Shown piece after piece: positions 13,985 to 61,468 of a stretch of DNA of 64,000 nucleotides. The stretch is taken from assembly GCA_964016885.1 (NCBI GenBank), contig OZ024740.1, forward strand, positions 391,406,001 to 391,470,000, given 5' to 3'. The notes under the pieces were generated by a model that saw only the letters and a program-made list of their open reading frames with translations, had not been told where the DNA came from and did not search any database. Both the position numbers and the translations under genes were made by a program. The DNA is from Eledone cirrhosa (lineage: Eukaryota). Position 1 is the first letter of the stretch. Every line of letters begins with the position of its first letter.

Positions 13985-15043
13985 TCCTTTGTCAGTGTTG
14001 AACAAAAGGGCAACGATGGTTGCTAAACACTGTACGGCTTAATTCGGGATGTTTGTTTACAAACAAACCGAGCATTATAATAAATATTCGGTAAATCCAT
14101 ACGTACATATATATATGTGTGCATGTATGTATATATATATATACATACTACTGTACGTCTGTATACATATATGTATGTACGTATACATACTTATATATAT
14201 ATATATATATATATATATATATATATATATATATATATATATATATATATATAATACCTATCCCTCTATTTCTTACCCCCTCTCTCCCCCATTCTCTCAC
14301 TCCCTCTACCTCACCTCTTCCCCCTCACTATCCCTCACTCTCTCTCTGAAAAAGATTTAGTTTTTGAAATGTTCTGCTTCATCTAACCCTTTAATTACGA
14401 AGCAATGATAGACTAGCTTTTCTTCGACATTTTCTGCATAAAAATCATCTATTGAAATATCGTTGATCTAAGATTAAGTGAATGATGCATTGAAAAATAT
14501 AGGTAAAGGAAAATAATATATTTTGTATCACCTTTACAGACCGATTACGTTTATTATGGAAAAAAAAAAAAAAATCAACACCAAAAACAAAAAGAAACGT
14601 TGTGACATAAATTTAACAGAAATATAATTGACAGAATTGACAAGAACTTATGAAGACTGAGGAATAGTGTTTAGATTAGAGAAAAAAAAATTAAGTATCA
14701 AGCTTTTTGTGAACACAAAACAATATTAGTTTGTTTTGAGTGCAAAACAAGATAATGTAAAGCTATGCGAAAATGATTTAGTGAAGGGGAAAAATTACCA
14801 TATTGAAAATTTCTCTTCAGTTTTGGGACCATGAATGCATATCATCTCATGTCGTACAAGTCTTCTGTGTAGGAATAAACATGCGATGCTTTTGTCAGCT
14901 TTTAGTTGATGTAGTGTAAATTTTGTCAATAGTTTCCCCAAATATTGCCTCTTTGAATTTGCATATTCAAGATTGTCACTTTAACAATGTTCTTTTCTGT
15001 TGAGACCGCTATATTTTTATATGTTGACACGTTTTAAGATAAT

Positions 15044-15168
15044 TGTTTCTACTTTTCGCACAAGGCCTGCAATTACCCAGTACATTACTGGTACTTTATT
15101 TTATCGACCCCGTAAGGATGAAAGGCAAAGTTAACCTCGACGGGATTTGAACTCAGACCGAGGTTAAC
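15044..15168 (-). mobile_element. 5'-truncated tRNA-derived SINE (family S1, OK-like)
   Basis: Matches other S1 copies; TSD ttttaagataat at 15032-15043 and 15169-15180. Confidence 0.8.
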
Positions 15169-15759
15169 TTTTAAGATAATACTAATCCGTCAGATATATT
15201 CACTTCAGATTAGTTTCTTTATTCTCGAATGCTGAATATTTTCACTGATCCACAGATATTTACACATTCCATGGCTTTAATGATTCGCTGAATTCAATAT
15301 CAGTATTTACAGACTCAATCAATCTAATCTGCTTGAAAGTGTCCTTGGAGCATTTGGCAAGTGCAGGTTTTATATTGATATCAAAGCTATAAAGTTTTCC
15401 AGTTCGGAAAAATTAGTCATTTCAAATCCCACCGAGCTCTAAGTTGCCTTTCAACTTTCATGGTTCCATAAAATAAACTACTATTGTTGTTCTTGTATTT
15501 CAGTTGCCATAATTTTATTGTGTATTTTCAGTGTATTGGTTTGCACTGATAGCCTTTTATGTCTATGTGCTACATATAATGTCCAGGTGCTTTTCAGCCG
15601 TTTATTTTTACCAGCGTCTTGACTACCTATTTTACTGTTATTGTCTCCTAAGAATATTCAAATGATGCGTACTTTGCTTTGAACAACGTCCTCCTAATTT
15701 GGAGGTCTACAATTACTCTTTTCCGTTAGTATCTCTTCTCGTATTGATATTATGGGCAT

Positions 15760-16270
15760 ATATTCAATATAAGCAGCACACTTCCCCAGGCTCTCTACCT
15801 TTATCCTCACACAGTCCCCTTTCAACCACGTCCTCCGTCTTTTCTATTGAAATATAACCTGTCGACATCTGCATGTGGGTGTAAGGCTTTGCCTATCGTA
15901 ATCACCTTTGTTTTTCTATCTAACAACTTCCTTCCTCTGATGATGGATACTGCTCTTGAGTTCATGGTGTTGATAGAATTTATACCCATTGAGTTTGGAA
16001 TTTAATATCTTCTTTACCTTTCGCAGATACACTCTCCTGATTTTGTTTTCCATTAATATATCTTTTATAACATCAGTTTCAACTTACAGTTCTTAATCAC
16101 TCATGCCATATAACTTCAGGTCATTCATGTACAACAAATGTTCACACCCTTCCGGTCTTTTTTATATCATATCTGTCTTTTCCTTTCTTCAATTCTAGTG
16201 AAAGTGGGATGAGGGCAGCGTCGAACAATGATGGGGGGAGCGATCCCCTTGGAACACCCCCAATTTATTT
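15760..16270 (-). pseudogene. Decayed R4/Dong-clade non-LTR retrotransposon RT fragment
   Basis: Minus-strand motifs GVFQGD..., HLLYMNDLKLYG and ALHPHADVDRLYFNRKDGGRG in the correct order. Confidence 0.7.
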
Positions 16271-17954
16271 TAACTCCTCAACGTGAGTGTAACCCTGCTT
16301 TTTGTTCTCCATCCCTTCATGCTTAACTTTTATCAGTTCAGCAATGCTTTCTTCATATTTCACTTCGAGTATTTGTTACTTTAAATTTTTATCCAACCTT
16401 TATTTGTTAGCTTTTATTATTGCCTCCTTTACCTAAAATTTTACGGATTTTCAAGTAAAACTCTGTTAGAATTATATGTAAGAAAGAAACATAACACATT
16501 TTTCTCTTGCTAATGTCTACACTCAACATGTACGTTATCTTTTATATTACAAATTAACTTAATTTTAAAACTCCCAACAGTTGTTAAATTGTCAAATACT
16601 AGAGACAAGGTTTTGAATGAATTTGACAGATGGCAATTAAATAAAACAACTATCTATAGTGTAACATGACAATGCGGGGGTTCCTACTTCATTGATAAAA
16701 ATACTTCTAGTGTTCAGATATATATTAACACACACAAATCTCATTGCTTATCATTTTAATGTTGACAGATTTCAACAATATCCCTCTCTCCAAAAGCCAG
16801 TTATTTGTCTTACTTTCAGACACGCGGTTGTCTGTGTTTCTATGTCAACGAGACTTCGTGACTACTTCGGAAAACTAAAACCAACTGTAATACTTCTATT
16901 TTACTTTTGCTTATACATTTCTTTCACAAGCATGTGATTTATCTATGATGGGAAATTTCTAGTTTCCGTCACTATTTGACAATTACAGTTCTGTTCCTCT
17001 TTTTAAGTCAGTAAAAAAAACCAATCCGGACATCTTTGATTTCAATATAAACCCAAGTCAGTTGATCTTGAGTATTGCACACACATATGTACACACACAT
17101 TCAACAAAAAATTTATGGATATTACAGATCCTTTTTTACTACACATTCCAATACTTGATGTATAACTTTGGTATTCGATGGGATATGCACATATTTTGTC
17201 AGAGAATCTACTAGTAACTCCGCGTGTTTGCTTCTTTTATGACTTCTTTTGATAGTCTTCTTTTGATAGTCTAGCGTTGTCTTGCATAGTCTTCAGATAG
17301 TGTTTGATCTGCCTCCTTAATCCTTCAGCCATGCATTTACTTTCGCGCGGTGAATTGTATAGAATACTACGGAGAAAAATTAGTTAGACACCCGAGTTGA
17401 TGTCTGTATATTATGAATTTAAGGTATCTGGTTTTAGCTCGATAGAGGATTTCTGTATGACTGAAAGCATTATATGTTAAACAGGTCTACAGTATGTGTC
17501 AGCTGTGTGTTTCATATACTCCACACATACAGAGACTGTCTGTCAGCCGGAAACCTTCGAGGAAACGCCTTCTCCATTCTGTCCGCTGGGGCTGTGGGGA
17601 GGCCAGCACGTGGAACCCCATTTGCTCACCATACGGAGAGATGGAGAGGGCGAGAGCGATGGAGTTCTTTCTTCCACGTTCGGACCATATCTTGTGGTTG
17701 TGTTCATTAAGCAGTTAATGAGTTTGTTTATGTATAGACTCAATAGTGTACATTGTGTATATATCAAATGAAATTCCTGTTTATATATTAAACACGTTCA
17801 ACATTTATCCCACAGCGACCCCACCTCATCACCCCCATCGCCATACCAGAGAATGATGTGGTTCTTATAAACTTTCCTGGGGATACAGAAGACTGTATGA
17901 ATCGACTTAAAATCACTTAGCATAAATGATTGCGCAATAGACTAAGTTTTGCCG

Positions 17955-59475: not shown

Positions 59476-59685
59476 TTAACTAAAAATAATGTTTGATCGT
59501 TGTGAGGGTTTGTTGGTAATAGTTACTGTCGAAAACGAGTACTTTTTAAGTAATCAAATGCATTATTTTGTTACTGATTTTGAAATTCTCTAACAAATTC
59601 AACGCCACAACAAAATCATTATTATTTTACATATACGTATAGTACATTGTACAAAAATTACAACAGTTCAAAACTGAACATTTAT

Positions 59686-60570
59686 TCAACCATTTTTAGT
59701 GTTTTGTACTGAGGCTTGACACCTCTTTTTGTTGACAATTTTTGCTATGTCTGGCTGAAATATCTGTACAGTTCCGACTTTGATCAGGGATGACAAGTGT
59801 TGATCAGTCAGCCTTGTTCTCTGAGAAGTTTTTGTTAATTTCATGAAGGAAAATAACTGTTCACACACATACGTAGAACCAAACATTGTCATAATCTTTG
59901 TGGCAAACCTTTTGAAGTTTTTAAACTTTTCAGGAAGGTATGAATGGAAACCACTTCAAGATTCTTTGCTCTGAGTGTAGAATCTGACTGCATTTCTCTG
60001 CATTGGCAACATCAAAGGTGAATGGTGCTGAGAATAAAGCAAACTGATGTTCAAAAGATGAGAAATCACAAATCTTTCCTGAAATTCCTTTGACAACAAT
60101 TCCAGCTGACTGTCATACTTAGTAAAGCTAAATACAGAATCAGTATTGGTAGTTTTCATTTGAAAACTGTGACTTCCATAAGTTTAGTTTTCTAATGAAG
60201 CACTTGATGTCATCATACAACTGAGTGATGAGTTTGTTTTTACCTTGTAATTTCAAATTAAGATCAATTAATTGTGCAGTAAAAGCCAGATCTTGGAGCT
60301 AAGTTTCATCTTTTATTTCATTTGTCTTTTGACCTTTCATTTCCACAAACATAATTATTTCTTGTCTCAACAAATAGAATCTTTTCAGCATTTTGTGACA
60401 TGACAACCAGCAGACCTCTGTGTAGAATGGAACATCGGTGAACTGATTATCCATATCTTCCAACAACTGGCTGAACTGACGGCAGTTAAGAGCATGGCCT
60501 CTGATATAGTTCACTTTCTTTGTGACCAATCTAAGCACATGATGCAATTTAAAAATCTTTGAATACAAAT
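59686..60570 (-). pseudogene. Decayed hAT (Charlie/SPIN, GTF2IRD2-like) transposase
   Basis: VNYIRGHALNCRQFSQLL..FYTEVCWLS..LKRFY and the dimerisation motif FGSTYVCEQLFSFMK..RTRLTD.HL, broken by stops and frameshifts. Confidence 0.85.
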
Positions 60571-61246
60571 TTTTCTGATGGAATGAAACTGTCGCTATAG
60601 TCTGAACCAAGAATATGTTATGTAAACAAAATACAGAATGGACTGGGGGAGAAAATAGGGTGCGCATTAGGCTATGCAATAGGTATGCTCACTCAGGATT
60701 GTCACATGATCAAACAACAACTTGCAAGCAAATCACAAAGTCTCAAATTGTCACTCTCCCATGAAATCTAGCAATGAAATTACCTGAAATCACATACTAC
60801 CGGCTTAAAAAAGAAGGGATATATATGATAATGTAGTCCAAAATAGCAGCAAAAAAAAAAAACGAATGGCCAAGCTTGAAAGCATTTGTTAATGCTCAAC
60901 CAGTGCTGTCTTGTGGCTATCTAGCAACTACAAAAGGAGTGACCGTGAGGTCTAACCAAGGAAATTATGTTTACTTTGTTCTTTTCATTGCTGATATTAT
61001 CTGCCGGTTACAACTGCTGGCAAAGTCGCCACAGTTTTTCTGATAACAGGGAGCAGAATTTGAATTCAGAACGCACAAAGTCGGAACAGATACCATAAAA
61101 TATCTCACCCAATTCTTTAATAATTCCGCCAATAGACAGCTACTATATTTGCCGTGCCCGAACAACTGAAAGGCAATGTTGATCTCGATGATTTTTTAGC
61201 TAAGACCACAGAAAGCCGAAACAAATACGTAGACATTTAATATAAT

Positions 61247-61450
61247 TGTTTCTACTTTTGCACAAGGCCAGCAATAACCCAGTGCATTACTGGTACTTAT
61301 TTTATAGACCCCTTAAGGATGAAAGGCAAAGTTAACCTCGACGGGACTTGAACTCAGACCGTAAAGGGACGTAACTATGTTGGAAAGCATGGCGTCCGAC
61401 TCTCTACTGATACTGCCAATTCACTGCCCCTTGCCAATTTACCGCCCTTT
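61247..61450 (-). mobile_element. SINE S1 inserted at the tail of another S1
   Basis: 18-bp duplication gtagacatttaatataat at 61229-61246 and 61451-61468. Confidence 0.85.
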
Positions 61451-61468
61451 GTAGACATTTAATATAAT

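Follow-up and report, generated by a model that had tools for sequence, protein, structure and literature searches.

A candidate partnership between an ATTAT-inserting SINE and Tx1-like LINEs in the genome of Eledone cirrhosa

Introduction

The sharing of a 3' tail between a short interspersed element (SINE) and the long interspersed element (LINE) that copies it is textbook knowledge, and one further pair of this kind is only moderately surprising. The closest described systems include the crocodilian SINEU elements, which have been paired with the LINE Tx1-Mar by a common target and overlapping age (PMC4494074); the eel pair UnaL2 and UnaSINE and the zebrafish elements ZfL2-1 and ZfL2-2, which carry a short 3' stem-loop (PMC4176376); and the maize pair ZmSINE2/3 and LINE1-1_ZM and the Chlamydomonas pair SINEX-3_CR and L1-1_CR, in which the 3' sequence of an L1-clade LINE is common to a SINE (PMC3472496, PMC3747384). 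The repeats of Octopus vulgaris comprise L1-Tx1, CR1, RTE and Dong-R4 elements together with SINEs that are mostly unclassified, and neither "partner" nor "target site" occurs in the available part of that report (PMC13282606). The subject of the present work is a SINE of Eledone cirrhosa of which about 14 pieces lie, together with an array of Tx1-like LINEs, in a 64-kb window of the 3.0-Gb genome; the window is the whole stretch analysed, 64,000 nucleotides of contig OZ024740.1 (assembly GCA_964016885.1, positions 391,406,001 to 391,470,000, forward strand).

An initial annotation of this window had proposed that the Tx1-like LINEs mobilize the SINE, and the analysis reported here points the same way. 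We infer that this very abundant SINE, which has a putative tRNA-like head, inserts at ATTAT, duplicates about 12-19 bp and ends in a predicted hairpin with a CUUGU loop, is likely to be copied in trans by the product of the second open reading frame (ORF2) of ATT-targeting Tx1-like LINEs. The SINE and these LINEs agree in the start of the target, the length of the duplication, the strand and the terminal motif, and it is because the ATTAT target, the duplication and the predicted hairpin are found in both that the LINEs are the likely source of the copying enzyme, most probably through a sister family of the copies in the window. No description of this SINE-LINE pair was found in the literature, the Repbase and SINEBase entries and the 1994 octopus SINE paper lying outside the search.

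Results

The SINE and its target duplications

The SINE copies of the window that bear on the argument are the following; coordinates are those of the window, and paired ranges give the two copies of a duplication.

15032-15180 (-): 5'-truncated SINE (15044-15160), flanked on both sides by the 12-bp duplication ATTATCTTAAAA (15032-15043/15169-15180)
19476-19715 (+): full short-type SINE (about 19493-19698; 5' 20-mer duplicated), 17-bp duplication starting with ATTAT (19476-19492/19699-19715)
19674-19686 (+): SINE 3' hairpin TGGC-CTTGT-GCCA, predicted 4-bp stem and CUUGU loop
20332-20528 (-): full SINE (20344-20517), absent from the initial list; only ATTATTAT is common to both flanks
24167-24381 (+): full short-type SINE, 14-bp duplication starting with TTAT (24167-24180/24368-24381)
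24455-24702 (-): long-type SINE (24473-24690), an exception; 13-bp duplication whose 5' copy lacks ATTAT
24869-24960 (+): truncated long-type SINE, its tail about 35 nt upstream of the (ATT)n run that carries the LINE array
48934-49180 (+): long-type SINE, 14-bp duplication ATTATRAGTGGTGC (48934-48947/49167-49180)
51505-51682 (-): SINE abutting an old Tx1-like relic (50895-51500), the two elements meeting at their tails
59275-59490 (-): full SINE, 15-bp duplication starting with ATTAT (59275-59289/59476-59490)
61229-61652 (-): head-to-tail pair of SINEs, one of which (61247-61450) lies inside the 3' flank of the other; 18-bp duplication starting with ATTAT (61229-61246/61451-61468)

The element has the properties of a SINE: it is short, non-coding, dispersed and present in high copy number, with 5'-truncated copies and target duplications. 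It falls into two subfamilies, of 186 nt (short) and 215 nt (long). Its exact 3' 27-mer has 78,055 matches in the genome, and 34,137 exact matches are found for the two main end variants with ATTAT followed by a base other than T. The head contains an A-box-like TGGCAGTATCGG and a B-box-like GTTCAAATCC, recognized by eye against the RNA polymerase III consensus; ARAGORN and Rfam returned no match to a tRNA or other family, and a search for a pair of short motifs from the body of the SINE found neither in the supplement of PMC4824008, which covers bivalve SINEs only. Truncated SINE pieces at 24765-24960 and at locus L031 (L numbers denote sampled loci) are inverted and overlapping, and look like twin-priming inversions.

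The six duplications listed in the initial annotation are all present in two copies at the stated positions, and the SINE and LINE 3' ends that it quoted were confirmed in the sequence. All six are real, but the list was selective, since it left out the copies at 24473-24690 (-) and 20344-20517. The duplications were evaluated in a larger sample, made up of 152 SINE copies that retain a 3' end. These come from the window, 40 stretches of 10 kb at even spacing, and loci picked by sequence-pattern searches of the genome. Because the SINE itself ends in ATTAT (as do 133 of the 152 copies), the 5' flank was matched blind using only the bases that follow ATTAT, and the five bases before the match were then read; an earlier caller with no boundary requirement was superseded.

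A non-simple duplication was callable in 53 of the 152 copies, the other 99 yielding no call. The 5' duplicate starts with ATTAT in 36 of these, with ATTAA in 4 and otherwise in 13, and outside the window the ATTAT count is 31 of 46. Shuffled pairings produced calls in 5% of cases, 10% of them with ATTAT, while ATTAT occupies 1745 of 799,680 background positions (0.22%); the start is thus enriched over what the AT-rich background would supply. Lengths run from 12 to 21 bp with a median of 16, plus one of 40 bp, and microhomology with the SINE head may have inflated them by 1-3 bp. Immediately before the site stands a C in 26 of 52 cases and never a G, which echoes the final C of the LINE tails. 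A further set of 30 loci gave 14 calls, 13 of them ATTAT; five of the 14 repeat the first set, and the nine new calls, from seven separate places, all have ATTAT.

The Tx1-like LINEs and their targets

The LINE array (25040-43668) consists of one truncated and three full copies, head to tail, with (ATT)n between them. Its parts, and the Tx1-like relics elsewhere in the window, are these.

24997-25041 (+): (ATT)15, 5' side of the LINE array
25040-25815 (+): 5'-truncated Tx1-like LINE with an A/B 3' end
25840-31712 (+): Tx1-like LINE copy A1
25991-26003 (+): second CUUGU-loop hairpin, GGGC-CTTGT-GCCC, in copy A1's 5' untranslated region (UTR), with another at about 37957-37969
31688-31700 (+): LINE 3' hairpin AACC-CTTGT-GGTT, followed by AATAAAGAAAAC and then (ATT)n
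31743-37761 (+): Tx1-like LINE copy B, 5' UTR and ORF1 different from A, ORF2 about 96% like A
37807-43668 (+): Tx1-like LINE copy A3, ORF2 fragmented; (ATT)19 after the copy
20885-22483 (+): relics of two truncated Tx1-like elements from a lineage that targets (ATCT)n, both with a hairpin (loops CCUGU and CUAGU) and then (ATCT)n
62819-63842 (+): old Tx1-like relic, hairpin loop CUAGU and ATTATT tail; a truncated SINE follows in the same orientation

ORF2 contains the Pfam domains Exo_endo_phos (an N-terminal apurinic endonuclease, APE), RVT_1 and zf-RVT (a C-terminal Cys-rich finger), and its closest solved structure is that of human L1 ORF2p (E 1.6e-49; R2, E 1.5e-21). In copy A1 the ORF2 frame (28011-31469) is open and every catalytic motif checked is present; ORF1 (from 26049) is broken by a frameshift near its start and has a CCHC knuckle. 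ORF1 of copy B encodes 699 aa, also with a CCHC knuckle, the spacing in A and B being CX2CX4HX4C, and in copy B only the endonuclease His motif reads TDL. Two ORFs, the first with a CCHC knuckle, are a feature of the Tx1 clade. The target preference is (ATT)n or ATTAT, with (ATCT)n in a sister lineage. On their sequences the array LINEs are classed in the L1 group as Tx1-like, a name given by anatomy and target preference and accompanied by a tree that holds no named Tx1 elements. Naming from homologues was rejected, database matches being mostly unnamed.

Exact 3'-end matches in the genome number 9,501 for families A/B, 2,334 for C and 2,356 for D/E. The families are 60-75% alike in ORF2 and differ in their targets, and in an endonuclease tree two (ATCT)n copies cluster (94/100) within the same radiation. 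The (ATCT)n-targeting sister lineage, with the same type of terminal hairpin, was seen in the window at 20796-22500 and at L068, L079 and L132. A separate observation concerns the 5' modules: between 25840-28015 and 31743-34055, and also at L032, L212, L219 and L244, the 5' UTR and ORF1 are unrelated where ORF2 is about 96% identical, and at least five different LINE 5' starts directly follow (ATT)n in the sampled loci. Unlike 5' modules on a near-identical ORF2 suggest module swapping.

Most LINE copies lie inside ATT runs, where duplications are unreadable. The LINE sample comprised 152 ends, 94 with a 5' boundary, and was evaluated with a boundary-based caller that misses some copies visible by eye; it superseded an earlier one (11/26 ATTAT) that accepted matches inside elements. 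Of the 11 automatic calls, seven begin with ATTAT and measure 12-22 bp, an (ATCT)n-lineage copy shows its own repeat, and the remaining three fit neither pattern; ATTAT makes up 6.5% in the control. The seven divide into A/B copies (L176, L181, L216, L230) and C-type copies (L110, L199, L214), and inspection by eye added nine more duplications, of 9-21 bp and starting with ATTAT or ATTAA (L183, L190, L195, L203, L209, L213, L226, L237, L243). Only 467 LINE ends in the genome have ATTAT followed by a base other than T, and the median tail length of 6 for family C is in part artificial, owing to an offset of the search pattern. Since both A/B and C copies give ATTAT duplications, one ATTAT is enough for the LINE, and the proposal that a single ATTAT suffices as a target holds for the SINE (36/53) as well as for the LINE (7/11). 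The LINE insertions at L190, L216, L110 and L181 are only about 25-45 nt long, barely hairpin plus tail, and have full duplications.

A common 3' terminus

Alignments of LINE ends with the terminal 45 nt of the SINE, in its short and its long form, were compared with 2000 shuffles, the p values being uncorrected for the number of comparisons. For the short and long SINE respectively, p was 0.0055 and 0.001 with family C, 0.0125 and 0.001 with D, and 0.0035 and 0.0005 with E (z 3.0-6.0 across the three), and 0.005-0.025 with the two (ATCT)n relics; it was 0.33 and 0.05 with A and 0.28 and 0.03 with B. The claim that the SINE 3' end mimics that of the Tx1-like LINE therefore stands for the sister families C, D and E (p 0.0005-0.013), but is weak for the window's own A/B family (p 0.03-0.33). 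The stems of families C, D and E are GGCC or AGCC, and the SINE tail most likely derives from one of these families; the A/B family, with the loop and target in common, may have mobilized younger SINE copies too.

Nearly all readable Tx1-like ORF2 ends have a 3-4 bp stem, a CUUGU loop, AATAAAGAAA-like bases and the target repeat, ten being without a motif match. Loop variants are CCUGU, CUAGU and CUGGU, and stems include AACC/GGTT, GGCC/GGCC, TGCC/GGCA and others. In the SINE hairpin, TGGC/GCCA, the loop and the closing C-G pair are retained and the adjacent pair is flipped relative to the LINEs. Among 15 hand-picked distinct Tx1-like ends 76.7% of cells pair and both sides change in six cells; the covariation score, uncorrected for relatedness, was reached in 7 of 500 shuffles, slid controls were lower, and two of the four pairs covary. 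The hairpin is predicted as the minimum free energy (MFE) or centroid fold in both short SINEs examined, in LINEs A, B and C, in the A 5' UTR and in one (ATCT)n relic; for the other (ATCT)n relic it is the MFE only, at low frequency. The hairpin points to the Tx1-like radiation as a whole, and the ATTAT target narrows the partner to its ATT lineages.

The hairpin also allows a different account, in which the Tx1-like ORF2 mobilizes the SINE in a relaxed manner through the AUU tail alone, the hairpin being a relic of the origin of the tail that is no longer needed. Such an account would explain why the hairpin folds weakly and why its outer pair is often broken, and the nearest solved relative, human L1 ORF2p, is of the relaxed type (PMC3747384). 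We nevertheless regard it as unlikely: the loop is kept across LINE families that are 60-75% alike in ORF2 and have different targets, it is kept in both SINE subfamilies although neighbouring bases differ, and a young CR1-like family is also (ATT)n-tailed, yet has no Tx1-type duplications.

A second possible origin of the SINE tail is a LINE 5' UTR, because SINE parts can derive from such regions (PMC5786205). The A-type 5' UTR hairpin (25991-26003) aligns with the SINE tail at p 0.0075 and 0.012, about as well as the C-E ends. The A-type CUUGU hairpins at 25991-26003 and 37957-37969 are followed by ATTATTAT and resemble the SINE and LINE 3' ends, and type B has a UUUGU-loop look-alike at about 31917-31929, in the matching place ahead of ORF1.

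Other LINEs as carriers

A Pfam reverse transcriptase search and an ORF survey found a CR1-like, several RTE-like, two R4/Dong-like and Penelope-like elements; the clade names were assigned from the proteins rather than from a tree. No 3' end was obtained for an RTE-like fragment (L067), and the Penelope-like elements were left out of scoring. The initial annotation had allowed that an R4/Dong or RTE end might match the SINE better; in fact all seven non-Tx1 ends, the CR1-like one included, gave p of at least 0.18.

The CR1-like LINE is young, with a 945-aa ORF, many intact copies that are 97-99% alike and an end of AATAATTTC(ATT)n on the sense strand, so that it might be imagined to mobilize the SINE, with ATTAT arising by microhomology priming. 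This is very improbable, since a junction-adjacent duplication was seen in 0 of the 25 copies with both junctions (of 40 ends), its end aligns with the SINE tail at p 0.63 and 0.18, and its hairpin loop differs. In this family (L145-L174, L090, L128) the older copies have a tandemly repeated 65-bp unit near the 3' end, and L170 has a duplication of about 75 nt.

The carrier might also be an RTE-like, R4/Dong-like or unsampled, perhaps extinct, LINE, the likeness to Tx1 reflecting convergence on a common AT-rich target. The first base of RTE duplications follows the RNA tail (PMC6007223), R4/Dong-like copies occupy the same microsatellites as the Tx1-like LINEs, and the sampling covers less than 2 Mb of 3 Gb. 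We consider this improbable, though somewhat less so than a CR1-like carrier. The RTE-like families in the sample have (GAT)n, (GGAT)n or (TGTA/TA)n as their tails, the last in 18 of 25 loci; the R4/Dong-like end, (AAT)n, is that of the opposite strand; the two R4/Dong-like and four RTE-like ends do not align with the SINE tail; and a genome-wide pattern for the exact SINE stem plus AATAAA, which would reveal a LINE with this end, gave 14 matches, all SINE variants. With the ATTAT signature in common and no rival end matching better, the ATT-targeting Tx1-like radiation is very likely the partner.

Among these other LINEs, R4/Dong-like (AAT)n ends lie tail to tail with Tx1-like ones in one microsatellite at L012, L013, L014, L017, L019, L025, L028 and L038. 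A BovB-like RTE (L305-L329, L115), which is young and encodes about 1200 aa with C2H2 fingers at the C terminus, sits in (TGTA)n or (TA)n runs and has (TG)n, (TA)n and (ATT)n tracts in its 3' UTR; at L115 a family C LINE is apparently inserted in such an ATT tract.

Ages and nesting

Median divergence from consensus is 6.5% for the short SINE (n=64) and 13% for the long SINE (n=10), and most A/B, C, D and E LINE copies are 2-6% from theirs; the divergences overlap, and so therefore do the periods of activity. A SINE starts within 80 nt behind a LINE end on the same strand in 16 of 90 cases and on the opposite strand in two (background about 0.7%), and behind a SINE end in 20 of 105 on the same strand and none on the opposite. 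Of 105 SINE ends a single one, at the array in the window, has a LINE behind its tail, and 4 of 94 Tx1 5' junctions follow a SINE tail. The suggestion that SINE tails seed LINE targets thus describes something that occurs but is minor (4/94, 1/105), while the reverse is common (16/90), as is SINE behind SINE (20/105).

Elsewhere in the window, 2149-3160 and 13491-14144 contain near-perfect long inverted repeats (330 nt, 100%; 244 nt, 98%), which are probably the ends of a miniature inverted-repeat transposable element or of a Penelope-like element.

Discussion

Several observations weigh against Tx1-like LINEs as carriers of the SINE. As regards the duplications, 17 of the 53 SINE calls lack an exact ATTAT start, only 53 of 152 SINE copies and 11 of 94 LINE junctions were callable at all, and 70 of the LINE loci had been selected for a short ATTAT tail. 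ATT runs of at least 12 nt are found at 23/30 A/B, 18/30 D/E and 10/29 C ends, and at only 4/105 SINE ends. As regards the 3' end, the window's own A/B family is a weak sequence match to the SINE tail, and the stretch common to SINE and LINE is only about 25-30 nt. The covariation control ignores kinship among the LINE ends; the outer hairpin pair is broken in 8 of 15 LINE ends and, among 64 short SINEs, in the 12 or more that have the GCCT variant; the hairpin is not the MFE fold in the long SINE at 48948 or in the relic at 63.6 kb; and the folding z-scores are weak (-1.8 to +0.5), those of the whole tail not being significant. Rare or extinct families were left out by the LINE sampling. Finally, an ATTAT start may arise from tail priming whatever the endonuclease, as RNA tails shape the duplication starts of RTE-related elements (PMC6007223).

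This last point bears on the idea that the SINE inherits the endonuclease preference of its LINE. The ATTAT start is indeed common to both, but since base pairing between tail and target can also set the start of a duplication, inheritance of the endonuclease preference is one of two readings, and both influences may act together.

The partnership with Tx1-like LINEs could operate as follows. ORF2 would bind the hairpin loop, as shown for zebrafish L2 elements, in whose clade loop-specific recognition with an exchangeable stem is established (PMC4176376), and would nick the bottom strand at 5'-ATAAT-3'; the AUUAU end of the RNA would pair with the freed strand and prime reverse transcription, and the second strand would be nicked about 12-19 bp on (about 16). 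Long (AUU)n tails on the LINE RNAs would lead these elements to accumulate in microsatellites, and a short AUUAU(U) terminus on the SINE RNAs would let the SINE scatter; the difference in ATT runs (A/B 23/30 against SINE 4/105) would fit long and short RNA tails. Each insertion would leave same-strand copies of ATTAT open to further insertion. A broader proposal can be put forward only tentatively, namely that this is an animal L1-group lineage with stringent, loop-specific recognition, in which the CUUGU-type hairpin served as the handle of ORF2 across a switch between (ATT)n and (ATCT)n, a 5' UTR copy allowed both RNA ends to be gripped, and a SINE of more than 78,000 copies captured the handle together with an AUUAU primer end and spread to single ATTAT sites.

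If the partnership is genuine, it identifies the carrier of a repeat that ranks among the most abundant in a 3-Gb genome, and it adds an animal case of L1-group tail sharing, for which the literature search yielded pairs from plants and one alga only; the only link between Tx1 and a SINE found in the literature is by target alone. One hairpin, (ATT)n and (ATCT)n lineages, and long and short tails would together form a natural test set in which endonuclease choice could be set against RNA-tail priming.

Octopus tRNA-derived SINEs, OR1, OR2 and OK, were reportedly described by Ohshima and Okada in 1994 (cited in PMC4824008 and PMC5804259); the Eledone SINE may resemble them in its putative tRNA-like head. 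The crocodilian SINEU/Tx1-Mar pairing resembles the Eledone case in its grounds, target and age, and in tandem SINEs that sandwich a duplication, but SINEU elements have small nuclear RNA heads and a Mariner target, and that study found no LINE with the SINEU-1 3' end (PMC4494074), whereas the Eledone SINE has a putative tRNA-like head, an ATTAT/(ATT)n target and a predicted tail hairpin in common with the LINE. Kibi, at (TC)n, Koshi, at (TTC)n, and the crocodilian Tx1 families at (TTCC)n and (TTTC)n are likewise microsatellite-targeting LINEs with an APE and a reverse transcriptase, likened here by description and not by a tree; their repeat units are different and the available text names no SINE partner for them (PMC4494074). 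UnaL2/UnaSINE and the ZfL2 elements have a short 3' stem-loop with a fixed loop, an exchangeable stem and a short repeat after it, much like the one predicted for the Eledone pair, but belong to the L2 clade and are shown by assay, where the Eledone pair is of the L1 group and is deduced by comparison (PMC4176376). The maize and Chlamydomonas pairs are alike in that an L1-clade LINE has its 3' sequence in common with a SINE, with compensatory stem changes in maize, and unlike in that they come from plants and algae, with no microsatellite targeting described in the available parts (PMC3472496, PMC3747384), the Eledone pair being animal. Like stringent pairs, the Eledone elements combine a 3' terminal sequence common to the SINE and families C, D and E with an insertion signature and overlapping activity, and they constitute a real and well-supported candidate SINE-LINE pair in a clade in which tail sharing has been little described.

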